From contig NMRA01000340.1 in assembly GCA_002633005.1 (NCBI GenBank), positions 295,435 to 359,434 on the forward strand: DNA of 64,000 nt. Direction: 5' to 3'. Under the pieces are notes generated by a model that saw only the letters and a program-made list of their open reading frames with translations, made no database searches and was not told where the DNA came from. This stretch comes from Phoronis australis (lineage: Eukaryota; Animalia; Phoronida). The first letter of the stretch is position 1; every line of letters starts with the position of its first letter. This document shows, in pieces, positions 2,941-34,388 of this stretch. The translations under genes were made by a program, and so were the position numbers.

Positions 2941-3959
2941 CGTTACTTAAATCGTAGCGGTGTCGATGGCCTCCTGCCGCGGTTATCCGGGAATAGGATA
3001 CCCTCTCCCTGGACTTTACGTGCTAAGTTATCATCAGAACTGAAATGAGTAAGGCGGGATGTTTTTTTGGGGGAAGAATAGGAATATGGGATTTTATTTC
3101 GAAACGTTTTTACAAAATATATTGACAACGTTCTTATCTAAGTTACCTCTAAATGTTCTTCATGTAGTGGTTTTCTTTGTCGCAAATATGTTGAAATTTT
3201 AGCTTGTTTCCGCAAGGAAGACATTCTGCAAAATTATGTCCCGTTAATGACTTCCAGCCTGCTGGCTTACTGTTTACAATACATGCCTGTTGAGAAATTA
3301 AACAATAATAACATCACATAAATATTGCCAAGACCAAGGACTCTGGGTTTCAAGCCATTGATAACCTGGGGCCTCTAAATCCTGTGTGTGCTTACGTTAT
3401 ATAAGCAATACCATTTTCTTTTGGTAATAGTTTTGCAACCATGTTCTCGGTAGACAAGCATTAGCCTGAAATATGCTGTGTAGATATATGGCGAAATAAA
3501 GCAGCGTTCCAGATGCTGAGATATTAATTTCGCCTCAGTGCAACTGATTTACATCTACACTTACTGTAAAGCTTCGAATAGAAGCCAGGGTCTCTAAAAG
3601 ACGCACTTCTCTAGAAGAAACCCGGGGGTAGATACGCTGAAACTAATAAACGCCGGGTCTCCAATAGAAGTTCCCTCTAAACGATACGGGCTTAGAGCAG
3701 ACAATTGAAAAAGATGAAGTTTTCCGGTTTTCTATCGTGCGATACAATGTTGGCCAGCCGCAGGACCGATATAAATGAACGCAGGGTCTCGAGGCCGGGC
3801 CTGGAGCACGTCTGAAAAATAACTTTCCGGATATTGACTAAACGTTTTGCGGTAAACTGATGCAACACATGAGGCCTCTCCAAAGCTGATGCCCACGCCT
3901 TTTATTTTATTTTGCCATACATTTTTGAATGCAGACTTTTTCGCCAACTTTTTTCTTAG

Positions 3960-6010
3960 AGGAGAATGCCATCCAAAAAAACAACCTATTTTATATCAAT
4001 TTAGATCGATTAGTTTTACTCGATAACGGCACGTTCGGTTGCGTTACCTGACACTTGACGGCAGACGGAGGTGTTTAAATTATTCAATGACGTCATTGGT
4101 TTCATACTCAGTCTGTTCAGCAGTTCATAACACGGGTTACTGGTGTCAGCATAACGCTTGAATTCATCGTTTAACACCAATAAATCACCAAACTTCGATG
4201 AAAAACTATTAAAAATACACCGAGTTCTTATAAAAACGTGTTGTTTTATTTCGCTGTTACGGAGTTGTTAGTGTTTAGACACACCGTAGCCTACAAAGTT
4301 CGGCAGGCCAATTTACCAAGGTCCGTAGAAGGAGTTTGGAGTTTTTCGGAGATAAATTCGGAGTATTCTTCCGTGAAATACAAACAGGAGAACCTATATC
4401 TGTGTTGTTTAGACTTGTGATTTTTTGAGTTCTAAACACACAAAACGCTTGACTGTTATCCCGGCCAGTGGCTCGGAACGGCGTTCAGGCCAGTCGCGGC
4501 CGGACTGAAGACACGACGAACATAAACCAGATAAAGTTGGAAACTAAACTTCCAGTCAAGAAAATACTATACTAGTGAGCCAAAGCAATGTGCACGTGAT
4601 TATGTTGATGAATTAGCCACGAAACTGCAAATCTACTTACTCGTCTGGGGCCGCGAATTCAGGTTTCCCGGCCTTGGGCCACACATAACAGAACCGTCAG
4701 GCCAGGGCAGAAGTTGTACATTGACAATCATTATTTGAATAATGTATATGTAAATAAAGATTCCCCTAATACTTGACCGTGGGATAGAAAGTCGTGTTGT
4801 TTCACAACAGTTTCTGTCAGCAAACACTGAATTAGCATGCGCTGACTCACACGGCCTCGGTGTCCGGTCAATTAGTTTTATTGCACCTAAAGCCGGTAAT
4901 GCAGTGATTTATTCATTGCTGGCTTCTCAAATCCGTTGCACTCACGAACACTCCAAAGGCATTACAAATTGCATCTATCGAGACAGACTTTGTTTCAGTT
5001 TTATGTAAGTATTGGTTAGGGTGAGAATAATTCGTTTTGAAACAGAACGCTCAGTACTAAACGTCAACATGGCAACTCGCAATTCCGACTTGGAGGAGTA
5101 CTCATCTGACGTAGACTTCACAGGTAGATCGTTAGGTTTCTCAGGATATCAGTTCGAACCAGAATACAGTGATCAATAAATACATGTATAAGAGAGGCGC
5201 CGTAAACGTGCACAGACAATGGAGCAGATGGATAGTTCCGAAAACCGTCTCATGGTGTCAGTGCGCTAACTACACCAACATGGAAACGACTGACACTTGA
5301 CTTGATTTCAACGAAATTCAACATGTGAAACGCCTTCTTGGAGAAGCAGAAATGTTTCTCACGGATCACCCTGATTTTGCACCGCATCTGAACAGAGGTG
5401 TGCTCACGACGTTTTTAGGGCTGGGAAAAAGAACTGGCGAAACCATCCTACACCCAGAGAACCGAACAGAAGCCTGACGAACGAGTAATCCATCAAACAG
5501 GTTATATAACATGCTCGCACCCGCATAAAATATAGGGGTGGGCCTGCCGAACGCAAACACACTAGGCACAGCATCTGACTTCAGCCTCGTACGCTTTTTC
5601 TGCCCTGGCATGAGCTGTTTGGCAAGCCGGGATTCGTCAGTGAAATCACTGTCCACGAAATACCGGCCATAGACACGGAGATGTTTCACGGCCTCGTACT
5701 TGGTATGAACGCCGTACTTTTCATTTTTCACTGCCGCGCGAACCACTTTCGAAGCATTTTGGGCTCTCGAGGAAATCAAAAGAACGATGTAGCCGCTTTC
5801 CTCGCAGCTTCATAGTTCGCACAAGCGGGAACGACACATCACACCATGGCGGCACTCACTCTGCAGATGAACCACTGCGGAGTTTCTCACCTTCCTCACA
5901 AGTTAACGCAACACGTATCGGCAAGGTAAGGTCGACCGTGCACGAGCCGATGTGACCACAGACCGATTAAGACGGTAAAAAAGACTAATTAAATCGGGTG
6001 GCATTGTCCG
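3960..6010 (-). mobile_element. Internally deleted Kolobok DNA transposon with THAP and KolX remnants
   Basis: Terminal inverted repeats aggagaatgcca...tggcattgtccg flanked by ttag/ttaa; decayed THAP domain on minus strand (MV*CVVPACAN...RTRLKSDAVPSVF, ~5550-5847); convergent plus-strand remnant from ATG 5069 with GYQFEPEY, SWCQCANYTNMET and LTDHPDF motifs; homologous to 52500-53955 in opposite orientation. Confidence 0.8.
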
Positions 6011-8352
6011 TTAATATGCTCATCTGGGTTTCTGGGTGTTAATGGTTGACAGCTTCATTGCAAAACCCGGAAACTAGAGAATATTTACCACATGACTTTT
6101 CGACCTCCATGTTATATCTCTGAGCCCTTCTTCAGTGCATAGCACTCTGACATTCTCCCGCCAGATGTCGTTGAAAGCGCCAGTATAGGATTGCAGTCTC
6201 AGATTTTGTACACTCCGTCGACTGTTCATTGGATGTTTTTGTATTATAACATGGACAGTATAATCATCCCTGGACGGCACTACTCGCACCCTGCTGAAAC
6301 ATGCTTACGTGGTAAAAAACAAAATTCAGAATATTTTTGTGAGCAGATTTTGTACATTTTGTAAACGCCTTCAAGGGGCAATTCACCGCTTTGCATCTGT
6401 CAAAGTTGAATTCTCAGTAGCCGATCGGGGGGTTTTAGAGAAACACATAACCACGGCCCCATCTTGAATTGTTACCGAATGTCACTGGCATTGTGTACAT
6501 ACGCCACTTTCGAATACGCAAGTTTAGAATTGGCCAACAGAAGCGTTTTTTGGAGTCGCTTTCAATTTCATACTGCCATTCATTAGCATTGCTACTAGTT
6601 TCGTAAAGAAATTAACAGATATGAACGAAAATGCAGAATGGAACACTGTCTCAATGTTTTTGAAAATCGTCTGCTGAAGAAGAGTTGTTTGTTTTAGTTC
6701 GGGCGTTGATTTCGTGACACACGGTGTTTCGCACGACAAACACCGATTTGCCTAAACTCGTATGATGCTATCGTTAATTGAAACTCGATAGAGCGCAACA
6801 TAATAAAAACTTTTCTGCTTTTGTCGTCCAAATATTTTGTTATCAATGTTGCTCTTCTCCCATTTTGAAACGATTCGTCCAATAGGACCAAAATTGGGGA
6901 AACCTGAGAAATCAATGTTCGCTTATCTTTAATGTTGCCAGTGTGAATCTTGGGATGACGACTACATCATTGTTCGACAATCGGACACGTGACAGACTGG
7001 CCATTGTTATGTGAATAGCTTATGTGCGGGGTTTCGGATGAATGTGTTCTTTCACTTCTGTCTGTCCCACAAATTAAACAGTCCCTTGCTCCTATTATTA
7101 AGCTACTGCTTAAAGTAACGTTTTGTCTCCATAAGGCTGATCTCGTTATTTTTGTGTATAAGGTTTTTAAGAAACGTGAACAGTGTGTCGCCGATAGCTG
7201 TCCTAGATTTATTGACGAGTTCTCGGAATTTAGCGATGACAATCGAAGGAATTTTTTCAGATGAAATATCCTTGTTCAAAAGCATCTAAAGTGTCAATTC
7301 ACAAAAAACTGCACTCAGTAGAAACCCCAATTATTTAGCAACAAGGATTTTTTATTCTGTCTGTCCTCTACAAAGCATGGATAAGCACCGTATAGGAAAA
7401 TCTGGGCATACAGCCAAATATCTATTGATTTTAAAGTAATAATTTGGCTGAGAGTAGAATGCATGTATAGAATTTGCTTTGTGACATGAATTTGCCATTA
7501 ATTGGATAACGTGATCAGGTCTTTCGATTGGAATTAGCCCCCAAGAGGTGCATACACATCAAAACAACGGTATGACCAACATGAACAAATTTCGCTGCTT
7601 TTGTTTTATGTAACTTTATTTTTTGTGAATTCATAAAAAACATCACAGTCCTATTTTTGATAGCCCACATACAAAACATAACAGTTTAAAAACAGTTTCA
7701 AGGAGTTCCAAAAGCAGTGCATAAAGTTTAGTATCGGAAAGTTTCATAAAAATCCAACCAGACATTTCAGAGATACGAATTTAGTCCAATTTGGGCATTT
7801 TTGACGGGTCCTGCATATCCATACAGGGGATATAAATCCGGCTGCTATCCCCAAAACAGCTTTTGTTTAAGACAACTTGTCGTTATGCAACTGGTCTGAA
7901 ATTGTTTCATATTTGTATCAGACGTTATTTCAGGGCTTCAGGGCTTAGTTGAATCCAGATTTTCCAAATTGGCAAGTCTCACCTTGTCATTCTGAACACG
8001 GTCTCAAGGAGTAAACAATCGCTAGCTTTGTAAACCAACACATCTTTCCTCATCTGAGTAAGGAACAAGTTGAGACCAATTTTTATAGCGGTTTAAATCA
8101 TAAACTTTCTTCTTCGACGGAACGCTGGCTTACAGCCGCTTAAAGTTTACCGAACCACTAACGCCACAAAAAAGTCACAGTCCATTCGTATTTACATTTA
8201 TTTTTTGCATCTGTCAGGAGTGGACTGACACTGTTCTTAGTATAGTTATTTCGTCTTATTGTCTTGTTTGTGTTCTAGCATATAGCATTTGATGTGCATG
8301 ACCACTGAGGTCAAAGTGGCAATAATGAAATTTGTTTACCAAAGAATAGTGT

Positions 8353-8463
8353 CGAACATTCTTGAAGATTCTAGCATGAAAGTGATTAATATTAATATGG
8401 AACATTCTAGAGCCTAGAATATGTTTGTAGAATGATTGGGTATATTCTGGAAAGTTCAAGAAT
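8353..8463 (+). promoter_or_regulatory. Cluster of heat-shock-element-like nGAAn inverted arrays
   Basis: GAAcaTTCttGAAgaTTC at 8354-8371 and TTCtgGAAagTTCaaGAA at 8445-8462 are perfect four-unit arrays, ~630-740 bp upstream of the ATG at 9094; partly retained in unit 2 (~14600-14745). Function is inferred only. Confidence 0.45.
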
Positions 8464-8939
8464 GTGTTTGAATTACTGAGACTATAGATACCAACGCACG
8501 TGTTAGTGACGGTTTGTTGAAATTCAGTTGAAGTTAAAGAGAATTACTAGACAATTACAGTTGAGTTGTCGAAAGTGTCTCAGAAATTCATCACAAGTCA
8601 AGGCTCCGCTGCACTGTCCGGATCATAAAACAGACATTACGTTTGACGTTGTGATTGAGTACGCTTGTGAACGTTCGGTCGAGACTAATAAAGTGATTAA
8701 CTCGAACCAGTCTTCAGTCTAGCGTCTCGCCGAATGCTATAAGCACCGGTCGGTAACCACCTGCACCCAGCCACACACGGGGAACAGCATACACGCTGCG
8801 AAGTAATAATTATGATTGCAGAGATTAGACGTTTATAGTTATAGTAGGTAATAATGTGAATTTCGTGGAAGAAAAAGAATATGCGAATGATTTTAATCTT
8901 GGTTTTGACGAAAATCATAAAAAATGTTGGGGCGTCACC

Positions 8940-9020
8940 TGCTGCCAATCTTTTCACAAGTGACGGCTCATTGGTTGGACTGATTTGTGGGAAGGCTTAT
9001 ATAAATATGTCTATAAATAC
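8940..9020 (+). promoter_or_regulatory. Core promoter of peptide gene: CCAAT boxes and TATA boxes
   Basis: gccaat (~8944), attgg (~8970), tatataaa (8998-9005) and tataaata (9012-9019), 75-150 bp upstream of ATG 9094. Confidence 0.6.
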
Positions 9021-9093
9021 TGAAGACGTTTCGGTGTACTAACGGATCGTTCTTGAAGTCCAACACAAAAGTTACACTACCTAGACAGGCACC

Positions 9094-11401
9094 ATGAAAA
9101 CTTTGGTAAGTATGTCAAAAACCTGTTTCATTCACGGTCTTGAAACAATTATTCACCTAAACTAAGATTTTTTATGAAATACTGAAAATGATTTGAAAAA
9201 ATGGAAATTCCAGATAGTTCATTTTCTGATAATTGTGAACTTTCGTTCTTTTTCAAAAATGCAATATACATCAATGCAGCAAATCATATCTTCATTTTTC
9301 ACAGCTAACTTAATCGCATTTCTTTAAAGTGATACAATCGGCGTTATGAATAAAAAAAAAACGCTCAAAGTTGAACAGAATTTTACACAAATTTATCCCA
9401 AAGAACAGTTCAACAGTTAATCGTAGCTTTTTTATTAAAAATGTTTCGAACTTACCGCAAATGCGTTTTCCGTTTCTTGATTTTAGCAAAAGATGAAAAG
9501 CCAGCGATTCCCGATTTCCAGTGCCGCATTACTCGCAAGCCCAGTTTCAGCATTTTTAGAAAGCGAGTTTTGTATGCTGCTGGCTAGCAAGAGATTCAAT
9601 CAGTTCATTAGTCGGAAGGTGAAATTATTACAAGTTTTTCAGAAGCAATCTTAATATGTCTGCGTACGCTTAAAATTAGCCAAAAACGAGCGCGAATGTT
9701 TACCTGTATTTGGAATGCTAACCTACTTGGCTCTCAACCTGACCATACCTGACACGAGCAGGTTCGGCATGTCTGACAATTAATCTTAGTCCGGCGCTCG
9801 ATGTCGTTTCCAAATGCCTATTCTAGAACTGTCACTCATGATCATCCATCGTGCTTTATTCTCTGCCTTCACCTACAGTCAGTAGATTAGCCAAATTCGC
9901 ACGACCCACCACCTGCGTCGGCAATTTTCACAGCGTCGGTTAACCTTGACTGGAAGCCTTCGTTATGAAGCTGTGACTTCTACTAAAACCACAGACACAA
10001 TACATTTTGTTGTTGTAACTCTGTGTAAAGCTAACTATCTCTAAGAAGTCAATCTTACTCAAAATAATGCATTTCGACAGTAGAACCGAGTGTGTCCTCA
10101 TAAACGCTTTGCTTATGCCACTTACTATGAAACTGACCTAAACTACGCGGCGAATCTTGAGTGGATTAGTTATGACTTGATGGATTCTTTTTCAACGTTT
10201 GATGAAATCATGCAACGTGAGAATTTTCAGGAAGATCGAAATCAACTAATTTTTATGGTATACCCTGAGAACACAAAATATTTTCCACTGAATGTTTTCT
10301 TTACCGAGGTGCGCTAGCAAAAATACATGGCCATTTTCGATGGGAATGTGGTGAAGCCATTAAATTGGAAATAAGGGTTAAATTAGGTATGGCAACGCAA
10401 AGAAAGAAACACAAACATGAATCCATGCATAAAATAGACTGCTGAGAGCACTATCATACCTTTATTCCATTATTTCATTTGACGTTTGAAAAAGTTACCT
10501 AAGGTTATTTTGCCTATAGCGTACAATTAAAAAAGACACTGTGTCGAGAAAAAGTGGGAACTCTATTGGAAAATTGAATCAGTTTGGGGTCAATTTGTTA
10601 ACGGTGCTTTAGAACAAGATCAAAAGTATCTACATTCCTGCATGCAACATGGCCATTAATTTCGAAAATCACCGAGAGGGTGCACGAAATCAAACCTTGG
10701 CAGTCCTTAGCTCATCTATTCTATGCGCTTATATTGTAATAAACAGAGCTGGACTGGATGCCACTGTAGTTCCCAAAACGTCGGCGAGCTATCATGACCA
10801 CGGCTCTGCATGTTATAAAGTTTAATCCCACTGAGCAATAGGCATACACTCTTTCACGTCAAAAAGGCACTGGGACCTTACGTCAAGACCGTTGACTTCA
10901 CCAATTAAGTACGCTTGAAATACTCTGCCATTTAATAGAACTTTAGGCTGCGATTGCACGGGATGTCAGTACGATTCCGCCTTCGGTTGAAATCTGAAAA
11001 CCTGTTTTCTCGCCGATAATGTCACTTTAAACATCGTTTTCCAGATTGTTTTGTGTGTCTTGGTTCTTGTGTTCCTTGTGCAACACGAGGCTGCCGTGGT
11101 GACGAGCGAATTACAGCCTGAAACCGACAGCAATGAGCTAGAACAAGATCTTAGCGAACTGACTGCCCGCAGTGAAAACGAGGCCGACGATGATAATGAC
11201 GAGGATGACGAAGACGACGAAGAACCAAACAGTGAACTCATGAAACGTTACGAAGAAGTGGCAGAAAAGGAAGCGGAAGAAAGCCCTGACAAGCGCTTTT
11301 TCTTTTGGCGTAAACCTCGCCGTCATCATCACCACCATAGGCACCACCACCACCACTACCACCACCGTAATCGCCGCCGTTGTCGCTTCGGAAAGAAGTA
11401 A
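9094..11401 (+). CDS. Secreted His/Arg-rich peptide precursor, 122 aa, 2 coding exons (9094-9105, 11045-11401); candidate antimicrobial/metal-binding peptide
   Basis: accATGAAAACTTTG|gtaagt joins in phase 0 to ttccag|ATTGTTTTG giving MKTLIVLCVLVLVFLVQHEAA (signal-like), an acidic propiece (DDDNDEDDEDDEE), KR sites, then FFFWRKPRRHHHHHRHHHHHYHHRNRRRCRF-GKK-stop; AATAAA at 11704; same exon structure in the duplicate. Confidence 0.88.
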
Positions 11402-11907
11402 TTTAGCTGTAATCGGACGTTGAAACGCTTTCTGTAAGGATTCCTGTGCCTACAATGTGGATTTACAAAAATCTATAATTGGCCAAAATGTTTATGTACA
11501 AGTATTTTCAGTTTTCGAGAGCTGCACATCAGTGAAAAAGCATAGAATGACTTTGAAGACATGTAAAATACATTTCAAATCCTCGTTGAACTTTCTTTTT
11601 GCTGACTGTATTTTAAATCAAATGTTAGGGCGCTTGAAACTCCAAAGAAACAGCCGGATTTGACGTCCAGATTTTATGATAGCGTAATTAAACAATGCCT
11701 TTGAATAAATCAGTAGCTTGCAAAAACTGTTGTATCTTTGTCAGGTTCGACAATATTCCTCCTCCACAGACCGCAAAGTCGTTCTCGTAAATACATTTTT
11801 TCTGTTCTCACGAAGCACGTGCTAAATTATTTTCAAGCACACGCAACACACACCTCCGTCCCGTCAGACATGACACGAAATGTGGTTGATGAAAAATGAA
11901 TTTAGAA

Positions 11908-13265
11908 ACTAGAAAGATTTTTGTCACGGCGTGACAATAACGGACTCTGCGCGTGCGTATTACTGGAATTATTATGGGAAGTTACTGACAGCAACCCGTT
12001 CCAATATCAAAAGTAACTCTTTAAAATTGTAGGAGAAATTACATATTAATTTTTTGATGACCTTTCCACTAATTGACTTCTTCCGATGCATTATGAGCCC
12101 CGATGATCGAGTAATTGTTAACTCGATTAAAAGTGTGGTTAATGCTATTAATCACAGATGTTTTACTTTAAGCATTTCAGAATACAAAATGAATGAAGTG
12201 GTCAATTTTTCAGAAGAAAAATGCACCTAATAACCCCATGGGTGAACCAAATGACCTGAAAATTTAGAATTAAACTCAATCGCACTTAGTAAACAGATAC
12301 GTAATTCTGAAGTCTCTAGCTCAAAATTTTAGTTTGCACTCAATGACCTTTGACCTATTTTTTCTGATTGGTTTGGCCTATTGCGAAGTTGGCGTGTTGA
12401 CTTACACCAGTGTACTGAAATTGAAAAGAATTCCTTGAAAAACGTAAGAGATATAACATTTTGAACGTTACATGACCTTTGCACTAATTGACCTTATCCG
12501 GTGCATTTTAAGCATCTTTAGGATAATTATTGCAAAGCTCATGGAAAATGTGTTTAACGCTGAGAATCGCAGTTGTCTAACGGTTGACACATCAGAAAAC
12601 TTGCTGATTGAAAAGGTCAAATTTTCAGAAGAAAAATGCACCTAATGACCCCATGTTTGCACTAAATGACCTGAAACTTTGGATTCCGATTTGATTTACC
12701 TGTGGTAATCTGACCTGTCAATTTGAAGTGTCTAGCTCAAAATTTTAGTTTGCACCTAATGACCTTTGACCTATTTCACCTGATTGGATGACCCGATTAC
12801 TTAGAAAAGTGATTTTTTAAATTGTCATGTTTACTTATATGACCTTTGCACCAAACGACCTCTTCCGGTGCAATATGGAATATGATTATATAACCAATTA
12901 AAATATATATACTGTCGAAAGTCATATGCTGAATTCGAAGACCGTACCTGCGCCCAATTCGGAGTTATTAAGCCTCAAAGTTGGTCGGAAGAAGAATAAG
13001 AAGAATAAGAAGAAGAAAAAAATTGAAGAAAACCCAGGAACAACAGTACGCTGCGCTTACATGCCCAGAGTAATAAGAAGAATAAAATTGAAGAAAACCC
13101 AGGAACAACAGTACTCTGCGCTTACATGCCCAGAGTAATAAGAAGAATAAAATTGAAGAAAACCCAGGAACAACAGTACTCCGCGCTTACACGCGCAGAG
13201 TAATACAATTAAAATTGAAGAAAACCCAGGAACAACAGTACTCTGCACTTACACGCGCAGAGTAA
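11908..13265 (-). mobile_element. Non-autonomous Helitron/Helentron-type (HINE/DINE-like) element
   Basis: Absent from the paralogous site in unit 2 (~24995). Left end CTAG (11909-11912) next to a perfect hairpin ttgtcacg-g-cgtgacaa (11921-11937); subterminal inverted repeat actctgcgcgtg (11944) / cacgcgcagagt (13252); internal ~400-bp tgacc-rich tandem units. Confidence 0.75.
13015..13265 (+). repeat. Four tandem ~62-65-bp units at the end of the Helentron-type element
   Basis: aaattgaagaaaacccaggaacaacagtac(t/g)c...gc(g/a)cttaca(t/c)gc(c/g)cagagtaa repeated four times, preceded by an aagaag microsatellite. Confidence 0.9.
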
Positions 13266-14278
13266 GAATGCGTTGTAAATTAAAAAAGTCCGCTGTTGCC
13301 GTGCGAAACGTGTTAGTTTGTCGTCAGAAATGTTAACACAGAAAGCGTCCCAACGAAATCACCCTTTAAGTTCATGAGTGACTCCAAATTCCATAGACTT
13401 CAGGCTCAGTTAAAACCGAGGATTAAAATTTGGAAAAGGTCATTTCACGAACACCATGTCAGTTTCGGTCTCAGGTTCTGGTGTCGGGGGGGGGGGATAA
13501 GAGCGCCTTGGCAAGAAGCCCCTCGGGTCCAAACACAAGGTCGAAACCCATACCAATTTTGCGCTTGCTATGTGCCCCTGTGTCGACGTATCCCAACGTC
13601 GCCCACAATTTCGCATTTGCTCCTGAATACCTCTGGTAACGCCAGTAATCTCCGTTCCACAATACATAGACCATGGTTTCTTTCATCCACCGTCATGAAT
13701 ATGTAGGCCTAATTACGTTGAGTAAACAAACCACTTCACGTTCGTTTCCCCCTAAATATCTAGTTAGCAACTCATTGGATAAGCGCATTACCAAGCCCAG
13801 TTTCTGTCGTTTACTCGTCCTTATAAGCGAAATCTGTTGTATTACCGCGTCTCCATAGAGCGCAATGTCACACAATTTGCGTTGTTTCTCTGCCTAGTTC
13901 TCTCGTCGTCAGGCCAATGTGCATACACTTAGCATGCCCAACTCACAACTGTGGAAACACAAGCCATAATGCTTTGATTGTATCAGTGGTAACCTACTTT
14001 GGCAGACTATATTTTCACGGTCGAAGCTTAGCGTGATAAAATGTGTAGTATGCTATAATATTTGCTAAACGTTGATTTATAGATTCACTTTATTTCTAAT
14101 TTGTTTAGATTTTTTGAGTAAAAGCATTATTTGGCAAAAATATAAGTCGGCTTTTCTTAAAAGGTCACGACCTCCGACCCCAGGCCTCTCTCAGTCTGAC
14201 ATAGACAGTAGTTACAAAGCCGAGGCGAGTCGAGAAAGGTGGATCGATTCATTGCAATGTTTCTCGTACAGTATATGG

Positions 14279-14444
14279 TATAGATTATTACATGTTCTCA
14301 GTCATTATCTCCCTTATCTAGAGCCCTCGTGGATTTTGAAGAATTATCACCCTCTGCGCTAACTCCCCTCGGGCGATAATTCTCCAAAATCCACTCGGGC
14401 TCTAGAATACGGGGGATAACGACTTCGCCATGTAATAATCTATA
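14279..14444. repeat. Fold-back palindromic element (MITE-like) at the duplication junction
   Basis: tatagattattacatg...catgtaataatctata with inner arms tctagagccc..gtggatttt / aaaatccac..gggctctaga; lies immediately before the start of duplication unit 2. Confidence 0.8.
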
Positions 14445-16929
14445 TTTGTCTTTTTGCATATGTCAGGAGTGGACTGACGCTGTTCTAAGTATAATTGTTT
14501 CGTTCTATTGTCCTGTTTGTGTTCTAGCATATAGCATTTGATTAGCATGACCCCTAAGGTAAAAGCAGCAATGATGTAATTTGTTTACCAAAGAATATTG
14601 TGGAGCATTCTTGAAGATTCTAGCATGAAAGTGATTAATGGAATATGGAACATTCTAGACCCTAGTATATATTTGTAGAATGATTGGGTATATTCTGGAA
14701 AGTTCTACAATATGTTTGAATTAGTGAAAAGTTCTAGAACATTGCATGAGACTATAGATACCCAAGCACGGGTTAATGACGATTAGTTGAAAATCAGTTG
14801 AAATGGAAGAGAATTACAAGACAGTTACAGTTGAGTTGTTGGAAGTGTCTCAGATGTTCATTACAAGTCCAGGCTCCGCTGCACTGTCTGGAGCACAAAA
14901 CAGACATTACGTCGGATGTTGTGACTGAGTCGTACGAGACTAATAAAATAGTTTACTCTTGCCAGTCTTCAGTGGATCGTCGCATCGAAAGCTATAAGCA
15001 CTGGTCAGTAACCACCTGCGCCCAGCCATACACGGGGAACAGCATACACGCTGCGAAGTGATAATTATGATTGCAAAGATTAGACGTTTGTAGTTATAGT
15101 AGGTAATAATGTGAATTTCGTGGAAGAAGAAGAACATGCGAATGATTTTAATCTTGGTTTTGACGAAAATCATAAAAAATGTTGACAACAGAGTGTACTG
15201 ACTATTCTTGATAATTGGGGCGTTACCTGGTGCCAATCTTTTCACAAGTGACTGCTCATTGGTTGGACTGATTTGTGAATGGACGGGTTTATTTAAAGAC
15301 GTCTATAATTACTAAAGACGTTTCCTTGAAGTCCAACAGAAAAGTTAGACTACCTGGACAGACAGCATGAGAACTTTGGTAAGTAAGTCAAAAAACTGTT
15401 TCATTCACGGACTTGAACAATTATTTACCTCAACAAAGATTTTCTAAGAAATACCGGAAAAGACTTGTAAAAAATGTGTTTGCGTATTCAGGAAATTCAA
15501 GATAGTTTTTTGGTAATTGTCAAGTTTCGTTTTTTTTTTTCAAAAATGCAATATACATCAATGCAGCAAATGATATCTTCATTTTTCCCAGATAAATTAA
15601 TCACATTTCTTTAAAGTGATACAATCGGCTTTATGAATAAAAAAACGTTCAAAGTTGAGCAGAATTTTACACAAATTTACCCCAAAGAACACTGCAACAG
15701 TTAATCGTAACTTTTTTATTAAAAATGTTTCGAACTTACCGCAAATGCGTTTTCCATTGCTTGATTTTAGTAAAAAAATGAAAAGCCAGTGATTCCCAAT
15801 TTCCAGTGCCGCATTACTCGCAAGATCACTTTAAGCATTTTTAGAAAGCGAGTTTTGTATATTGCTGACTTGTGAGAGATTCAGTCGGTTCATTAGTCGG
15901 AAGGTGAAATTGTTACAAGTTTTTCAGAAGCAATCTTAATATGTTTGCGTATGCTTAGCCTAGAACGAGCGCGAATGTTAACCTGTATTTGGAATGCTAA
16001 CCTACTTACCTCTCTACCCGACTCGAGCAGGTTCGGCATGTCTGGCAATTAATCTCAGTCCCGTGCTCGATTCCGTTTCCAAATGTCTATTCTTGAACTG
16101 TCACTCATCCATCGTGCTTTATTTCTCTTCCTTCACCTACACTCAGTAGACTACCCACTGGATTTTTTAACGCCAAATTAGCACTACACACCACCCACGT
16201 CGGCAATTTTTCACTGGGTCTAGCAACGAAACAGCTGGTGAGGTCGCCGCCTCGAGTTCAGGTAACCTTGACTGGAAGCCTTTGTTAAGAAGCTGTGACT
16301 AATATTGAAACCACAGACACACAATATATTTTATCGTTTCAGAACTCTGTTCAAAGCTAGCTAACTCTACGAAGTCATTCTTCCTCAAAATAGGTCATAA
16401 TTGCATTTCGACAGTAGAACCGAGTGTGTTCTCATAAACGCTTTATAGTCCGGTCTCTCAGCAGCCAAAAACCCCAAAACATTTACAACCCGGATTAAAG
16501 CACCAAAGTTGGCACACAGATGCTTTGAGACACATTGAATCTCATGGGGTCGGTTGCCCGAAATTTGAGGTCAAGGTCAAGATCAAACCAAGGTCAAAGT
16601 TCATGTGGGTAATTTTTTTTGAAATGGCTAGACACGAAATATCTGCTTCATTACTGTTTCAGGTAATAAGCAGGAGGCTTTATTTTGATTTAAAATTAAT
16701 GTTGATAACTTGTACAAACACGTTAAAAGTAAAAAAGTAATTTCCTGACACAAGATGGTAATTATTATAATAAATAGAGCATATAGTATTACATCTTCAA
16801 TGAACAATAAGTNGAGGAAATATTTTACCGCTGTGTATAAATGCCGTAGGACTACCTATGAGCCAAATTTGGTGAAAATCGGCTGACCCCCACCTTGCCG
16901 CTTATGGCTGGTGCTCTCGTGGACTAGTA

Positions 16930-17690
16930 CTTAATCTCAGTCCAGTGCTCGATTCCGTTTCCAAATGTCTATTCTTGAACTGTCACTCATCCATCGTGCT
17001 TTATTTCTCTTCCTTCACCTACACTCAGTAGACTACCCACTGGATTTTTTTAACGCCAAATTAGCACTACACACCACCCACGTCGGCAATTTTTCACAGG
17101 GTCTAGCAACGAAACAGCTGGTGAGGTCGCCGCCTCGAGCTCAGGTAACCTTGACTGGAAGCCTTTGTTAAGAAGCTGTGACTAATATTGAAACCACAGA
17201 CACACAGTATATTTTATCGTTTTAGAACTCTGTTCAAAGCTAACTAACTCTACGAAGTCATTCTTACTCAAAATAGGTCATAAATGCATTTCGACAGTAG
17301 AACCGAGTGTGTTCTCATAAACGGTCTCTTAGCAGCCAAAAACCCCAAAACATTTACACCCCGGATTAAAGCACCAAAGTTGGCACACAGATGCTTTGAG
17401 ACACATTGAATCTCATGGGGTCGGTTGCCCGAAATTTGAGGTCAAGGTCAAGGTCAAACCAAGGTCAAAGTTCATGTGGGTAATTTTTTTTGAAATGGCT
17501 TGACACGAAATATCTGCTTCATTACTGTTTCAGGTAATAAGCAGGAGGCTTTATTTTGATTTAAAATTAATGTTGATAACTTGTACAAACACGTTAAAAG
17601 TAAAAAAGTAATTTCCTGACACAAGATGGTAATTATTATAATAAATAGAGCATATAGTATTACATTTTCAATGAACAATAAGTCTATTTG
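16930..17690 (+). repeat. Near-identical second copy of 16050-16812 after a single-N join (allelic contig overlap or local duplication)
   Basis: ttaatctcagtcc...tgaacaataagt repeated with few substitutions; second copy lacks ~12 bp covering the Academ left terminus; N at 16813. Confidence 0.85.
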
Positions 17691-18546
17691 TTTTCTCTGG
17701 ATGAGAAAAAACTGTCAAGCTAGTATGAATATGCATTAAGTCAACTCTAGAATGTTTTACCTTTAACAGAAATTCATTTTTAAATTCTTTGTTAAACTAT
17801 TTATGGTTAGTTATACAACAATTGGTCTCCGTATTTATACATGTAGGAAGAAATTTTCAAAGAACAATTGCTGAAACTTCTATCATCATTTTTAATTTGA
17901 TCACAGCTAAAAGTAACTTTGTTAATTAATGTGTTATATTTCAGTTTGAACTTGACTGTGACATTAATTAAAACAATTAAAGTAATTTAGGTAATTTAAG
18001 GTTTTCCAGGAGGATGAAATAAAAAAACCAGGTTTTACTTGTTGTATCAAAATAACGTGAAATCCTTGTTGCACTATACTTTAAAACAGGTCCAGGCATA
18101 ATTAATTGTATTGAGGAACATGTTTTTTCATAACAAATGTCTATGTTTAAGTTTTGCTTCCATCTAATTGTTTGTGTTGACATATTGTGGAACAACTGAA
18201 GATGACCCCTACTCATCCAGACAACAGTACTCATGCAGGTGACCTCAGCTCTGAGACTAAATTGATTTAACTGAATGGCACATTCTAACCGTCACAACTG
18301 CAGTAGAGTTGAGACTGTGTTTGATGCTTACACCGAAGACACCTTGAAGGCCACCACAAGAGCTGATAGAGGTTCAGGTGATCTTGCCGAAGTTTCACCC
18401 TAAACACGTCTGTCTCTGAACTTTCAGAATTTCTTGCAAAACTTGAAGAATAAAGAGGAATTGTTCATGCTGTAAGGTTAAGATATCTTGGCAATCGCCT
18501 TATCCTCCAGTGCATGATATATATGTTACCGCTGTCAGTCTGTTCT

Positions 18547-18892
18547 CATAAGCGGATTTAAGGGGGCCCAGCCCCCCCTTGGCTGCCGGAAAAAATAAAA
18601 CAGAAAAAGCCCGAGTGAATTTTGAGTTTAGTAATTAACGTCGGTAACTAACATGCGGCTGAGGGGGGCTCAGACCCCATTGAAAGTGTCCGATTTAGAC
18701 CACCGGTGTACGATCATTTGTTCTTTTATTTTTTTTTCAGTCTTCCGATTGCGTTTTAGTCCAAGGTCCACATCCACAGAAATTCGGGCAGCTCTAGATG
18801 TCAGGCTGTGTGCTCCCATGCGCTCGTGCTTTGCGCGATTGCCCGGGACACATTGTTGGGCACCCCCTTATGATATCCTAGATACGTCACTG
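18547..18892. mobile_element. Small non-autonomous DNA element nested in Academ coding region
   Basis: CATAAGCGGATTTAAGGGGG...CCTAGATACGTCACTG imperfect inverted termini, flanked by 5-bp direct repeat gttct; interrupts the XPG-like reading frame. Confidence 0.6.
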
Positions 18893-20447
18893 GTTCTTTC
18901 CTCTGGTTCTGATATACCATCGTGCGATCATGAGGAGTCGGACATCCGTATGGGCTTGTACATTGCGGACGCTTTGATCAAAGGTAATCAGAGAATACTA
19001 GTTAATACAATGGAAACTGATGTTGTGGTCGTTCTTCTTGGTGATTTTCATCAGCTTTAAAGGCTTTGCAGCCTGCAATTCAATGACGGACAGTGGTTAA
19101 AGCTGGAAAGAACGCACGGGTCCAACTCTTCGTCACTAGCGTGTTTGACCAGCTTGGGTACGATTTGTTTGTAGCTCTACCAATGTTCCATGCCTTAAAA
19201 GGGTCGGACACAATGTCCCAGTTCTATGGAGAAGGGAAGAAAACAGCATGAAAGACATGGAAAGCTTACCCTGATGCTACTCGGGAATCCTCGTACCCCG
19301 CAATCAATTCCTTTCAGCAACTCAGCATCGACAGTCAGGAGTTTAAAACAAATGAGACATTTATATGTGTCGTTTATGATCGAAAAGCCAAAACCAGCCA
19401 AGTCAATACTTTACGAAAGAAACTTTTCCCCAGAAAAGTTCAGATCATGCCAAATTTATAGCTTACCCAGTCTCCTCTGATAAAACATGTTAACAAATGC
19501 TTGTATCAAGCTGGCAGTCGGATGCCCATCCATGAGAAACCAAGTCCAGAGGAGTTTGGATGGCAGAGAGACACGACCAACAATGGATACTGTGGTTGCA
19601 AGAGCGTACCGCTATTCGTCAAGAGATGTGGATGAAAAATTGCTTCCTTAGCATGCACAACACTTTCCAAATGCCAGGGAACATGAGCTAACATGGTTTG
19701 TTATGGACCAAAGGAACGGATGAAAGTGTTAATTTAATTCTGTGGGCTACACTGACAATTTGACATTAATCCGTTTTATTGTGTCGATAATATAAGCAGT
19801 TGACAATCGGTTTATATGTAGACAGGAGCTATAACAAGCATACTAACGACATTTATCAAAGCTGGCCCCTGAGTTTTTGGTAGTCTGTCACGTTCTATGC
19901 ATTATATTAGTCCCTTTATCATAACATAAAGCAAATTTTTATAATAATTGTACAAATTAATGATAAATCGAGTTCAGTTTGGTAAGAGAACCTATTTATT
20001 TTTGTATTATTAGTCTTGCACCAGATCAAAATAGATGCTTTTGTTAAAAGTGCAGTTGGTTAGTTAAATTTTGGCGGCCATGTTGGTTTTATGCAAATGA
20101 GGAGTTTTAATATTAGGAGGAAAATATATTGCAATGTCTTTTGTTAGATTTCTAGTTAAGAAAGTACCATTACCGAGCCTTAAAATGTGTGATCATCTCT
20201 TAAGCAATCATAGATTGTATTACCCCAATATTTTTAAAAAATATTCTGAAATTCCGCAAGTGTACTACAAAATTAATTTTTTCTATATGGAAGTCAAGAA
20301 TTCAACCCAAATGAAGATAAGGTTTTATTCGAAATAGTATCAAAATTTCTTTTTATTTTTAAATCTCTTTCAGTGAGTGGATAGAATTGTATAAATGTGT
20401 ATGAAAATGATTTATTTATTTTCGTAATCATGTCGCATTGCAATCTT

Positions 20448-22738
20448 TCTTTTTTCACTGTGATATATATTTATTGAAGGATACACAGAACATACAAAGA
20501 AATAATAACAAACCCAGAAACCGCGAACCATAATATCTGGGTTGTAAACAATTCATAAATGAAACTTATATACATAGAGGTATATACAATTAAGTAGTAT
20601 CTAAAATAAGTATTCCAATACTTAGACATGCTATTACAGATACATAAAAACAAAAATATGTACAGATTCATGTAGGGAAATCAGATGCAACAATATTGAT
20701 AAACGGTACATAAAAATTTACTAACGTTGCTTAGGAGGAATTCGTTGAGAACAAAGTCAAGGTTAGGACTACCATTCAGTAATAATGTAACTCTAGTAAG
20801 GATATTATTACAAGAATTGAGAGCGTTAACAATTGATTGGTTATCATTGAGTGCACAAAAGAGTGAGTCTCTCAGGGATTCGATGAGGGGACATTTGAAG
20901 AAAATATGAGGATAAGATTGACGGTCACCAAATTTACAGTTTGGAGAGACATTACTAAAGTTGTGCCTGAACTTGTTAGAGTTGAGGAAAAGGCCACATC
21001 TTGATCTGTACAATGCTATTTCGTTATCGCGGGTAAGGGAGATTTGAGTCAAGGGTGTTGAGTTATCAAAATTATGAAAAACAGTTCTAAAATTATTTTT
21101 TATACTCGTAAAAGAGTTGCTTTCCTTAACAGAGACTGGAAGAGAATTCCAGTTGTTGATGCACATCATGACTGTAGACCTTCTGAATGCCTGACTGAAC
21201 GACGGAGGAATTGCANNNNNNNNNNNNNNNNNNNNNNNNNNNNNNNNNNNNNNNNNNNNNNNNNNNNNNNNNNNNNNNNNNNNNNNNNNNNNNNNNNNNN
21301 NNNNNNNNNNNNNNNNNNNNNNNNNNNNNNNNNNNNNNNNNNNNNNNNNNNNNNNNNNNNNNNNNNNNNNNNNNNNNNNNNNNNNNNNNNNNNNNNNNNN
21401 NNNNNNNNNNNNNNNNNNNNNNNNNNNNNNNNNNNNNNNNNNNNNNNNNNNNNNNNNNNNNNNNNNNNNNNNNNNNNNNNNNNNNNNNNNNNNNNNNNNN
21501 NNNNNNNNNNNNNNNNNNNNNNNNNNNNNNNNNNNNNNNNNNNNNNNNNNNNNNNNNNNNNNNNNNNNNNNNNNNNNNNNNNNNNNNNNNNNNNNNNNNN
21601 NNNNNNNNNNNNNNNNNNNNNNNNNNNNNNNNNNNNNNNNNNNNNNNNNNNNNNNNNNNNNNNNNNNNNNNNNNNNNNNNNNNNNNNNNNNNNNNNNNNN
21701 NNNNNNNNNNNNNNNNNNNNNNNNNNNNNNNNNNNNNNNNNNNNNNNNNNNNNNNNNNNNNNNNNNNNNNNNNNNNNNNNNNNNNNNNNNNNNNNNNNNN
21801 NNNNNNNNNNNNNNNNNNNNNNNNNTTGGCAATCATTTTGATCATCTTGCTGGTTATTAAAGCTGTGCCATCATTCTTATTGGGGTCAATTTCATTGAGA
21901 TACTTCCGGACATCAGTTTGATTAGCCGGGATGTCAGACAGTTGATTGAGACAACGTTCACGAAGAAAGGGAAAGTTACTTACTTCAGTTGGTGTAATGT
22001 GGCTTTTGTTCGTGAAAAATTTGAGAAACAAATCACACTTGTCACTACTACGTGAGGCTAGGTTACCATTATAGTTGATGACAGGATAGGAGGATTGCTG
22101 TTGACTGCCGCGTATTTTATTGATGATGTTCCAGTATTCTTTGGAATTCTTGCTTGCGCTGTTAATTTGTTGAAAAAGCTTGTGTCGGTGATCAGCTTTG
22201 GCTTGATTTACTAAAGTTTCAACCAGACGTGACTGCTCCTTGTATCTGTTGTAGATTATAGTGTTGTTAGATCTTCTGAAAGAGCTGTAAAGTCTGTTTC
22301 TTGTGCGGATTGCCCGTTTAACATTACTGTTGAACCACGGTTTGCTGTTGTGTTTAATTATCTTTTCAGTTGATGGGATGTTGTTTTTTAAGATTTCATA
22401 GAGAGTACTAGTGAAGAGTGAAACAGTGTCATCAATGTCGCCAGTGTTCAATATGGAATCCCAGTCAGTGTTGGTGATATCCTGGCGCAGTTTATCGGTG
22501 TCGACCTGATTATATTTCCAGTTGGTTCGAGTGGTGTGTTGTTCATTAACCGGTTTTTTAAGTGTTCGAGTGGTTTCGATAGTGTGGTGATCAGAATTGC
22601 CAACAGGAGGTAGTACAGAACATGAGTCAATGATACTCAAATTGTTTGTTATACAGAGGTCAATACATGAATGAGAAACGTCGGTGATACGGGTTGGCTC
22701 ATTAATTAGTTGTATGCAGTCATTAGACAATAAAATAT
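20448..22738 (-). mobile_element. 5'-truncated LINE (CR1/L2-like ORF2) nested in Academ
   Basis: Long open ORF2 segment (QLINEPTRIT..SCIDL..NSDH endonuclease C-terminus; KPWFN linker) 21826-22730 and C-terminal part 20681-21215; AATAAA plus short A tail at the left end; 12-bp TSD cattgcaatctt at 20436-20447 and 22739-22750; RT core falls in the N gap. Confidence 0.9.
21216..21825. other. Assembly gap (N run)
   Basis: About 610 Ns. Confidence 0.99.
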
Positions 22739-25700
22739 CATTGCAATCTTAACAACAGTTTTTTAATTTATGTATTTGTGTAAAATAATTGTATGTAGAT
22801 TTCGTTGTACTTTTTTAACTCAGATATAATGCCTCTTGGCGCATTCTGGGTTATGTACATGTATATTCATTGTATCGAAGATTTCGTAATAAACATTATA
22901 AAAAATAGATTGTATTACTTGGCAACCACTTTGTTTTTCGAGAATTGACCTTGACCTCAAAATTTAGGCAACCGACTCCATGAGTACCAGTGTGCCAAAT
23001 TTGGGGCTTTAATCCGAGGTGTAAACGTTTTCGGGTTAAGGGCTTGGACCATTACTTATGCCACAAAATGCAACTGACCTCAACTACGCGGAGAATGTTT
23101 AGTGGATTATTTATGACTTGATGGATTCTTTTTCAACGTTTGATGAAATCATGCAATATGAGAATTTTCAGGAAGATCGAAATCAGCTAATTTTTATGAA
23201 ATTAGTCAAGCACTGTATCCCCTGAGAACACAGAATATTTTTCACGGAATGTTTTCTTTGCCGAGGTGCGCGAGCAAAAATACCCGTTTTCAATGGAAAT
23301 GCTATGCAGCCAAGAAATTGGAAATAAGGGTTAAATTAGGATATGACAACGCAAAGAAAGAAACACAAACATGAATCCATGCATAAAATAGACTGCTGTG
23401 AGCATTAGCATACCTTTACTTCATTTTATGTGTTAAACTTAACGTTTAAAAATGTTAGCTAAGGTTATGAATGGGCAATGTCGGCATTCCCGTGCTGCCA
23501 TTATGGCGTTTTGTCCATGCCCATCTTGCAGAGTCTTAGTTAGTTTCATCTATTTACGTCATAATAAATGACAATATTCGCAATCCTCCTCTTGTTTTAC
23601 TCTGCAACATAGCTCGTGGGGTACCCCGCGCAAAATAGATTACGATAAAAACAGTGTCGAGAAAATGTGGGAACTCTATTGGAAAATGGAATCCGTTTGT
23701 GGTCAATTTGTTAACGCTGCTTTAGAGTAAGATCAAAAGTACTTACATTCCTGCATGCGACATAGCCATTAATTTCGAAAATCACCGAGAGAGAGCACGA
23801 AATCATACCAAACAGTCCTTAGTTCATCTATTCTATGCACTTATGTTGTGATAAACAGAGCTGGACTGGATGCCACTGTTCTTCCCAAGACGTCGGTGAG
23901 CTGTCCTTACCACGGCTCTGTGAGGTTTTGTCCCACTCAACAATACGCCTACCCTCGTTCACGTAAAAAAGGGCAGTGGGACCTTAAGTCTTGACCGTTG
24001 ACTTCAATCTCCAGTTAAGTAGGCTTAAAATACTCTGCCATTTAACAGAACTTTAGGTTGCGATAGCAGAAGATGTTAGTGCGATTTGGCTGAACTCTGA
24101 AAATCTGTTTTCTCGTCGATAATGTCACTTTAAACATCTTTTCCAGATTTTTTGTGCGTCGTTTTTCTTGTGTTCCTTGTTCAACATGAGGCTGCCGTGA
24201 TGACCAACGAGCTACAGCCTGAAACCGACAGCAGTGAGCTAGAACAAGATCTTAGCGAACTGACTGCCCGCAGTGAAAACGAGGCCAACGATGATAATGA
24301 CGAGGATGACGAAGACGACGAAAAGCCAAACATTGAACTCATGAAACGTTACGAAGATGTGGCAGAAAAGGAAGCGAAAGAAAACCCTGATAAGCGCTTT
24401 TGGTTTTGGCACCGTAGACGTCGTATAATCCACCAGAGTTAACACCACCATCGTCGCCTTTCTCACTACGGAAAAAAGTAATTTAGGTGTAATCTGACGT
24501 TAAGACGCTGGCTGTAAGGATCCCTGTGATCTGCTGCCTACCATGCTGGTTTACAAAAACCTATAAATAGTCCAGACTTGTTATGTATTTGCAGTTATGT
24601 AGAGTTGCAAATCAGTGAAAAAGCAATGACTCTGAAGACATGTCAAAACATCAATTCCTTGTTGAACTTTTTTTTCTGACTGTAATTAAAGTCAAGTCTT
24701 AGGGCGTTTGAAACTCCAAAAAAACAGCTGGATTTGACTTCCAGATTTTATGATAGCGTAATTACACAATGCCTTTGAATAAACCAGTAGCTTGCAAAAC
24801 TGTTGTTTCTATTGTCAGGTGAGACAATATTCCTCCTTCACAGACCGCAAATACAGTTAAGTAGTCTTTTTTCGTGAATACACTTCTGTTCTCACGAAGC
24901 ACGTGCTACAGTATTTTCCAGCACACGCAACTTACACCTCTGTCCCGTCAGATATGACACGAAATGTGGTTGATGCAAAATGAATTGCAATTTAGAAAAA
25001 ATGCTTTATAAAATAAAAAGTCCACAGTTACCCTGCGAAACGTGTTTGTTTGTCGTCAGAAATGTTTTAACATTTAAGTGTTAAAACACAGAAAGCGTCA
25101 CAACAAAAACACCCTTTCATGAGTGACTCCACGTTCTATAAACTCCAGGCTCAGTTAAGACCGAAGAAGAAAATTTGGCCATTTCACGAACACCATGTCA
25201 GTGTCGGTCTCAGGCTTTGGCGTAAGCTCAAGCGGGGGTTGGACACAATGGCGCCCTGGCAAGAAGCCCCCTCTGGTCGAAATCCCAGGTCGAAACCCAT
25301 ACCAATTTTGCGCTTGGTAAATGCCCCCGAGTCGACTTATCCCAACGTCGCGAACAATTTCGCGTTTGCTCCGGAATTCCTCTGGTTACGCCACTAATCA
25401 CCGTTCCACAATACACCGCCGGTTTCATTCACCATCTTGAATACGTACTTGCGTTGAGAAAACAAACCCCTTCACGTACGTTTCCTCCTGTGCATGTATA
25501 TCTAGTTACCTACTCATGGGATAAACGCATTATCAAGCGCAGTTTCTGTCACTTTCTCGTCCTTAAAGCGAAATCTGCTGTATTATTGCCTCTCCATAGA
25601 GGGCAATTTGGCTTGTTTACTCTGCTTAGTTCTCACAGTGCCCTCGCTGGTTCCTTGCGTGCCGCTAGGTACCTACTGTACGCAGGGAACCAGAGAGTGT

Positions 25701-26743
25701 CAGTATCACACCAATGTGCATGCGCTTCGCATGCGCAACTCACAACTGTGGAAACATTATCCATAATGTTTTGATTCTGTCAAAATCATTATCAATATCA
25801 TATAACGCATCCTCTCATTGGCTTATTGCACAAAGTATGACATAAAAACTGGTTAATTAATGTAGGGCCCAATTGTATGAAACAGTCAGAAATGGGGTCT
25901 CAACAACGGCGATTCGGGAAGCCGGCAGTGGGCACTACCGCTGCCTAGCTCTGGTAGGTGTAACGTAAAGTTATTGAAATTTTGTTAAAATATACCGACA
26001 TGATCAAGCACCAAGTGACCACCTGATGCAATACAAAGCTCATGTACCTGGGACAAATGAAGAAATATAACGCATGACGTATGTTGAAACATGGGTAGCG
26101 ATTTGGCCGAGGCATGGCCAGAGGGTAAATTCACACGACCACACATTTTGGCATTTTCATCGTGTTTCTTTGCCTGGCGCTAGATTTCTTTCACCCGTAG
26201 GAATATACGTCATGAAACGTTCGTCGTATAAGTATCTAGGGGGAAGGAAAACAGCAGAGCAGAATCGGTCGATAATCTTTAATTTCTCAAGTTTCGAATT
26301 AGCATATCAAGATAAAAACAAGGTAAACACACTTTTAATACTCATCGAACTGTTTTGACAACTAAGGAACTGGAATTACAACGAATTTAGTTGTAAACAA
26401 GTCAACGCTCACACAAGCCATCTTGACTCAGTCAAAAGGCGGAGAGTGGGCAGACAATATTGATGATATTGCAGAAAAACGTCGTTTGCATCTATAATTC
26501 CTGGTTATCTCTTCCTACTATCATGAAGTTAGCACTATATTTTACAATCGCAGCCTAAAGCAGTGCTCATGCAGGGACGTATTCATGGTCAACACCTTTA
26601 TTTGGACTTTCTTTCTTTTAAAGGTGCATTTCTCTTTGTTAAGATAAAAAACTATAATCAAATTAGACTTTTGACACCCACGAAATTAGTCTCATAGTAT
26701 TACTTACCGTGATTAGATTCTCCTTCTGTTAACTACACGACGA

Positions 26744-26936
26744 TGTTGTGAAGCTGTGGAGTTGTCTCCCTCAAAAACTGAAGACAACATCAAGTGGGAA
26801 GCTTCCACGCGACTCGGCGTTCAAAAGAGAGCGTCTGCTCCCTTGACTTTGTGGTATTCAGACTGACAAGTCGTCAGTTTGCACTGTCGTAACCTTTGGC
26901 GAGTATTTGGCGTGCCCTTAACTTGAATATACTACA
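26744..26936 (+). repeat. 5' LTR
   Basis: tgttgtgaagctgtgg...gaatatactaca, followed by PBS-like sequence. Confidence 0.93.
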
Positions 26937-26959
26937 TTTTGGTGGGAACGATGGGATCT

Positions 26960-34378: not shown

Positions 34379-34388
34379 TGTACTAAAG

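Follow-up and report, generated by a model that had tools for sequence, protein, structure and literature searches.

The window analysed here, meaning the whole 64-kb stretch of DNA, carries a two-exon peptide gene (copy 1) and a diverged tandem duplicate of it (copy 2), the features of which are collected in Table 1. The first coding exon of copy 1 consists of the four codons MKTL, read from the ATG at 9094, and the phase-0 donor GTAAGT begins directly behind it at 9106; the acceptor, TTTTCCAG, terminates at 11044, and exon 2 (11045-11401) is entered in phase 0, giving a spliced product of 122 aa. The stop-to-stop open reading frame at 10991-11401 contains no ATG ahead of the signal, and the 12-nt micro-exon is therefore required. 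Two candidates combining an ATG with a donor lie within 6000-11044, and an alternative first exon at ATG 10202 (MKSCN, donor GTGAGA) was rejected because no RNA reads connect to it.

In the spliced product a hydrophobic N-terminus (Kyte-Doolittle peak of 3.9 over nine residues) is followed by an acidic propiece, a KR site, a core and a GKK-stop, which is the order of parts that the original prediction had read from the sequence and that we recover. A filter for this layout (acidic segment, KR or RR, non-acidic segment, G(K/R)n, stop) retained a single ORF in the window, copy 1 itself, and none in 60 windows simulated with an order-5 Markov model as chance control. A simple rule for positions -3 and -1 of the signal was passed at residue 25 only. 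The single-sequence structure model of the precursor (mean pLDDT 65.7, pTM 0.25) predicts a helix in the signal region and two helices in the acidic propiece.

Table 1. Coordinates of the peptide gene copies, given as positions in the 64-kb window.
Feature	Position	Strand	Basis
TATA-like boxes	9012..9018, another at 8998	+	sequence; X3 sense depth also in 8900-8999
Copy 1 exon 1, MKTL	9094..9105	+	sequence and junction reads
Copy 1 intron, 1939 nt, GT..AG	9106..11044	+	15 X3 reads, 11 starts
Predicted signal peptide, remainder (residues 5-21)	11045..11095	+	hydropathy; predicted cleavage near HEAA
Acidic propiece, 65 aa, 29 D/E, charge about -23 to -24	11096..11290	+
Internal propiece dibasic KR (K71-R72)	11243-11248	+
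Predicted KR convertase site, residues 87-88	11291..11296	+	common to all three members
Predicted mature peptide, 31 aa, FFFW cap, His runs, Arg	11297..11389	+	sequence
G-K-K-stop, predicted CPE/PAM amidation signal	11390..11401	+	sequence; kept in relatives
3' UTR, poly(A) signals ATTAAA 11687 and AATAAA 11704	11402..11709	+	sequence and X3 depth
Copy 2 exon 1, MRTL, GTAAGT donor, conserved promoter	15367..15378	+	promoter alignment
Copy 2 exon 2, paralogous precursor	24147..24481	+	alignment and X1/X2 reads
Copy 2 core, FWFW cap, then GKK-stop	24398-24469	+	sequence

Transcription of copy 1

Expression was assessed in three raw-read RNA runs from 2026 (X1, X2 and X3) and one contig set (X4), all matched by species label, with about 18-19% of each raw-read run examined. 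The splice from the MKTL exon into exon 2, which had been proposed from the DNA, is confirmed by 15 stranded sense reads of X3, with 11 different starts, that cross the GT-AG junction 9105/11045. Seven further X3 reads bear exon 1 as loose ends, and a second read-level view of the same run recovers 26 reads in which exon 1 and the 5' UTR are joined to exon 2. Sense depth in X3 drops from 10.4 to 0.56 at 11700, beside the two poly(A) signals, and no sharp transcription start is listed in this depth near the TATA-like box at 9012. The level of copy 1 in X3 is roughly 14-16 FPKM, a rough estimate with reads cut within the His repeat. Junction support comes from one of the four RNA sets (one of the three raw-read runs), as X1 and X2 yielded no copy 1 junction reads and no X4 contig falls on copy 1, the latter carrying no weight as evidence. 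Copy 1 is a real, spliced and transcribed gene whose expression is consistent with its poly(A) signals. In a scan for NF-kB, MRE, CRE and AP1 motifs no strict kB motif was found upstream of the copies, and one MRE-like 7-mer lies before each of them (8762 and 15017); these motif counts are given no weight here.

X1 and X2 contain fairly even minus-strand RNA over introns and exons in the intervals 8900-11899 and 23700-24999, at roughly 1-10x on copy 1, and X3, in which copy 1 is on, contains almost none. This RNA could come from read-through or from the intron of a minus-strand transcript, and the mutual exclusion of sense and antisense signal across the three samples hints at antisense interference. 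A short, strongly transcribed repeat at 23600-23653 is represented by hundreds of partial reads from X1-X3 and by several X4 contigs.

A tandem copy and divergence of the core

The whole peptide gene unit is tandemly duplicated within the 64-kb window, in which copies were counted (8190-13985 against 14438-25782, approximately 77-83% BLASTN identity), and the intron of copy 2 holds a further duplication (16049-16812/16931-17683, 96.6%). As assembled, copy 2 exon 2 lacks one base right behind the acceptor, and an in-frame stop interrupts it at 24440-24442. The reads do not show this stop (4 of 4 in X1 and 9 of 9 in X2), and no copy-2-type insertion at the one-base shortfall is listed in the reads of these runs. 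Sense reads from X1 and X2 (6 and 4, respectively) enter copy 2 exon 2 from a cryptic donor at 24013, upstream of which there is an in-frame stop and no ATG. Given the one-base shortfall and this cryptic splice, copy 2 is probably a transcribed pseudogene.

Divergence between the two copies is unevenly distributed. The propieces are identical at 190 of 204 positions (93%), the introns at 528 of 581 and 424 of 483 (88-91%) and the 3' UTRs at 264 of 304, and the cores share 54 of 69 positions (78%) with 27 additional gap columns, the alignment being uncertain in the His repeat. Core identity is below that of the intron (p=0.009) and below that of the propiece (p=0.001), and toward its two ends, where the core aligns without gaps, six codon changes are non-synonymous and one is synonymous. 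The GKK-stop is unchanged at the protein level in copy 2 and the Cys codon has become Ser; the C-terminus reads LSHY in copy 2 as against R-x-R-F/Y in copy 1, and the charges of the copy 2 propiece and core (-19/+12) are mismatched.

A similar distribution is seen between the X3 reads and the assembly. Among the rows listed (40 of 69), the core differs by F90I, K94R, R96H and F119Y, all non-synonymous, and the 252 nt of signal and propiece differ at two sites, both in the propiece, one silent and one Y73N; the comparison of core with signal and propiece gives p=0.047, or p=0.010 with the masked repeat left out, over these same 40 of 69 rows. Since it is based on this portion of the rows, we regard the excess of core change in the X3 allele as suggestive. 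Judged from the comparison of the copies, the core evolves faster than the intron, a pattern typical of host-defence and toxin families.

The surroundings of the two copies contain several other genes and repeats. A 65-bp tandem repeat (13002-13265; 4.1 copies, 93% matches) lies between both peptide genes. Within the copy 2 intron, a LINE-like element on the minus strand (20460-22748) spans a 610-N gap; its endonuclease/reverse transcriptase match (E 0.0011) is below the cutoff, and a related copy at 34388-35137 is 89.7% identical. An outspread/MPRIP-like gene with a PH domain and coiled coils (26932-31531, minus strand) is directed toward the peptide cluster and matches Mytilus at 70% over 43%. 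Farther along, a five-exon gene at 47878-55141 (plus strand) encodes an Amt-type ammonium transporter with approximately 63% identity to many invertebrate proteins; in a quick tree built from 65 of 120 AMT proteins it forms a long, unplaced branch (1.69) with no close database relative. The host is an invertebrate animal, probably a marine one. The segments 3954-6014 and 52496-53961 form an inverted repeat pair (76-80% identity) that is probably the remnant of a DNA transposon; the minus-strand ORF at 5366-5809, which has what we take to be a THAP-like ending, has no Pfam match.

A distant relative and the search for a named family

A phmmer search against 1.84 billion representative proteins returned a single match to copy 1 (E 9e-6, 38% identity), the protein WP_411025552.1, designated P0123 below and annotated as 'hypothetical protein, Salmonella sp. 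s55004'. It consists of a signal, an acidic propiece of 64 aa (65 aa in copy 1) with an internal RR, then KR, WWW, poly-His and GRR. Its core of 22 aa has 13 His, one basic residue (Lys) and no Cys, and its C-terminus is HHYH; the propiece carries a charge of -14, and the core one of +12 at pH 5.5 and about +2 (+2.3) at pH 7.4. The internal dibasic sites (K71-R72 in copy 1, RR in P0123) and the ELE/DDND motifs align. Pairwise BLASTP between the two proteins gives E 0.41. The core alignment score was attained by 12 of 5000 shuffles (global) and the propiece score by 190 of 5000 in global and 587 of 5000 in local alignment, and signal similarity shows no excess over shuffles. Homology of copy 1 and P0123, as judged from these sequence comparisons, is likely but not certain.

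P0123 is a singleton and stands alone on a 396-bp contig, with no relative among the 600 candidate stretches listed from GTDB genomes and none found in plasmids. This suggests that the bacterial label is probably wrong and that P0123 is a mislabelled animal transcript; a search for literature on such Salmonella sp. labels found no paper.

In copy 1, copy 2 and P0123 alike, three or four aromatic residues come after the KR, the core has His runs and the sequence closes with G-(K/R)2; the Cys and the Arg-richness are not common to the three. It is probable from these shared traits that they represent a small family of aromatic-capped poly-His peptides built on a well-known precursor design. The original description of the peptide as His/Arg-rich thus extends to all three members in its His runs and not in its Arg content, which is absent from the P0123 core. 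The suggestion of a disulfide homodimer through the single Cys fails, as this residue is conserved in neither copy 2, where its codon specifies Ser, nor P0123.

None of the other searches linked copy 1 to a described family. A word-indexed protein search restricted to lengths 64-207 left none of its 47 candidates at E<=10, a search of 5.8 billion proteins gave no match, and the ESM Atlas yielded nothing for either exon 2 or residues 60-118. Only compositional matches below the cutoff were obtained from Pfam, and the 53 PDB sequences returned (best E 0.11) were mostly His-tag or acidic-tract matches. A metagenome scan with an alignment (A1) led to one locus (L001) among the 597 candidates listed, which was rejected as an acidic segment within a protease-like ORF of 855 aa. 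In the passages of a nemertean, brachiopod and phoronid neuropeptidome supplement that concern four motifs (PMC8557429), there is no matching precursor, and the sole KRFFFW match in those parts of the supplement is a receptor tail. No title found in the literature searches describes the family; APD/DRAMP, TSA transcriptomes, bioRxiv supplements and subscription papers lay beyond these searches and may contain a description. Passages of a 2025 review of marine invertebrate antimicrobial peptides mention histidine for clavanins and clavaspirin only (PMC12466427). In agreement with the original view, the copy 1 peptide appears to fall outside every family named in the databases covered here, including Pfam, PDB, the ESM Atlas and the word-indexed and phmmer collections.

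Properties of the predicted peptide

The core predicted to be released at the KR site comprises 31 aa with 12 His, 9 Arg, 1 Lys, 1 Cys and no Asp or Glu, exactly the acid-free composition, with its FFFW start, that had been read from the sequence; it has 4 Phe. For the amidated core, charges of +20 at pH 5.5 and +10 to +11 at pH 7.4-8.1 were computed. Propiece and core stand at -23/+20 at pH 5.5, and at pH 7.4 the +11 of the core is unmatched. The core contains basic sites of its own, namely RK (93-94), RR (96-97) and a furin-type RNRR (112-115), and the GRR of P0123 aligns close to this RNRR; the real product may therefore be shorter than 31 aa. The tandem paralogue, K71-R72 in the propiece and RNRR in the core are additions to what the original prediction had described.

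The hydrophobic fraction of the core is 0.19, its mean hydrophobicity is -0.76, its computed amphipathicity is low and its His residues occur in runs of five. The single-sequence model places no helix in the core, a region in which its confidence is low (pLDDT about 57-61). As far as such modelling allows, the core would make a poor amphipathic helix, making a mode of action like that of clavanins or histatins likelier than a helical pore.

Interpretation of the peptide and alternatives

With slightly better than even confidence, we interpret the product of copy 1 as a secreted, pH- and metal-modulated antimicrobial (host-defence) peptide, made from an arminin-like precursor and belonging to no named family. 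The signal would direct the precursor into the secretory pathway, where in acidic granules the charge of the core (about +20 with His protonated) would be balanced by that of the propiece (about -23), until cleavage at KR liberates the core and convertases, carboxypeptidase E and PAM yield the amidated peptide. Once released, the FFFW cap could anchor in anionic microbial membranes, and the His/Arg stretch would provide a pH-dependent charge and likely Zn/Cu binding, with an action resembling that of clavanins and histatins and not that of a classical amphipathic helix. In copy 1 as in P0123, propiece and core match in charge at granule pH, which suggests that they are stored as a neutralised complex, and neutralisation of cationic cores by anionic propieces is described in passages of PMC10608444; copy 2, at -19/+12, does not fit this match. 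Against an antimicrobial role stand the charge of the P0123 core at pH 7.4 (+2.3), which is weak for a peptide active on membranes at neutral pH, and the modest level in X3 as compared with arminins, which parts of PMC10945409 describe as among the most abundant transcripts. According to excerpts of PMC5198042, His richness alone does not guarantee pH-dependent killing, and clavanin C showed no effect of Zn in those of PMC10004757.

More tentatively, the three members could be viewed as a family of 'natural His-tags', in which an aromatic membrane anchor of three or four residues is combined with poly-His and with a propiece tuned to granule pH. Such a peptide might serve as a membrane-tethered Zn/Cu chelator or as a pH-switched killer, and His/Arg swaps might tune the switch between lineages; we consider this a possibility that is less probable than its alternatives taken together.

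The common trait of the three members is their His runs and not Arg or Cys, and the P0123 core, with His at 13 of 22 positions, is nearly neutral at pH 7.4. Both observations would also fit a metal-binding or structural secretion, serving in cuticle, jaw, tube, adhesive or mucus hardening or in the sequestration of metals, with poly-His as the working part and the propiece keeping it soluble until release; polychaete jaws and mussel byssus do contain His-rich, metal-hardened proteins. We hold this explanation to be unlikely, since a core that changes faster than the intron is better suited to an arms race, the product is very short and predicted to be amidated, and His and Arg replace one another freely (R96H in X3 and R/H differences between the copies), which indicates that charge rather than a fixed metal site is at stake. 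A toxin for defence or predation, either cytolytic or channel-active and delivered from skin, mucus or a venom gland, would be encoded in much the same way, as animal toxin genes likewise run from a signal through an acidic propiece and KR to a core with G(K/R)n. Passages of PMC5577615 mention the combination of conserved prepro-region and fast core both for toxins and for defence peptides, and expression in one of the three raw-read runs is as sample-specific as might be expected of a toxin. Copy 1, however, has no disulfide scaffold, Pfam match or meaningful PDB match (best E 0.11), and its modest expression and low amphipathicity also argue against a toxin, which we regard as distinctly unlikely.

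Least probable among the alternatives is a lineage-specific neuropeptide or hormone. A single-copy peptide with an amidation signal behind an acidic spacer and with modest expression would be in keeping with such a role, and the C-terminus of copy 1 recalls the R-x-R-F/Y-amide motif in which NPY/NPF peptides end; among the rows listed (40 of 69), F119Y retains an aromatic residue before the predicted amide. Neuropeptides usually keep their amidated end conserved, however, and this end reads LSHY in copy 2 and HHYH in P0123. NPY-type precursors, moreover, place the peptide directly after the signal. An NPY/NPF-like identity was rejected on account of the unconserved end, the intervening 65-aa propiece and the lack of a Pfam match, and the passages of the PMC8557429 supplement likewise offer no match to a neuropeptide precursor.

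If the antimicrobial interpretation holds, a candidate family with transcript support joins the His-rich defence peptides. The variants that occur naturally, in copy 1, copy 2, P0123 and the X3 allele, range from Arg-rich to almost pure His and would allow a direct test of how His and Arg content affect pH and metal dependence, and the copy 1 peptide is short and simple to synthesise. How such families escape notice is illustrated by the first coding exon of 12 nt, the lack of a match in the search of 5.8 billion proteins and the deposition of the one relative as a bacterial protein.

Comparison with known peptide systems

The copy 1 precursor has the same order of parts as those of the arminins of Hydra and the arminin-like AMP1-4 of Trichoplax. 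Arminin precursors are described in passages of PMC12013895 as consisting of a signal, a highly acidic N-region, a basic C-region and a C-terminal Gly, and parts of PMC6217004 give a 31-aa cationic C-terminal peptide from a precursor that ends in GKK. Hydra antimicrobial peptides appear in sections of PMC10945409 as bipartite, tandemly duplicated orphans, with arminins confined to Hydra. The peptide arminin 1a-C lacks His and adopts a helix in TFE according to excerpts of PMC6217004, whereas the copy 1 core, compared by eye, has 12 His. Copy 1 further differs from the arminins in its aromatic cap and His runs, and neither Pfam nor the word-indexed and phmmer searches gave an arminin match. Disulfide-linked dimeric peptides of the dicynthaurin, halocidin and centrocin type have a conserved Cys that is missing from the copy 1 family.

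Unlike clavanin precursors, which have a C-terminal extension past the Gly, the copy 1 gene stops at GKK. The two are alike in being His/Phe-rich and amidated, with amidation predicted in copy 1 (12 His, 4 Phe, GKK), whereas a clavanin is an amphipathic helix of 23 aa in which the His are spaced (i, i+4) and copy 1 has His in runs of five. Histatins are products of primate salivary genes and are not known to have a long acidic propiece or to be amidated, and they have no aromatic cap, whereas copy 1 has cap, propiece and GKK; no histatin match that would indicate homology to HTN1/HTN3 was found in Pfam or PDB. Clavanins and clavaspirin of Styela clava are described as His/Phe-rich, amidated and pH-dependent in passages of PMC10608444 and PMC5198042, with potentiation of clavanin A by low pH and Zn in parts of PMC10004757, and human salivary histatins as non-amphipathic, His-rich, cationic and Zn-binding in parts of PMC10004757 (see also PMC10012264 and PMC7559477).

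The myticalins and modiocalins of mussels are, in the relevant passages of PMC5577615, linear, Arg-rich peptides with pI >11 that are often amidated and have a hypervariable core, pseudogenes and variation between individuals. Copy 1 evolves in a similar manner, and its architecture is different. According to the same source, the myticalin core comes directly behind the signal with the anionic propiece at the C-terminal side, the first exon carries no coding sequence and the coding-region intron is in phase 1, whereas in copy 1 the propiece is N-terminal, exon 1 is coding and a phase-0 intron follows codon 4.
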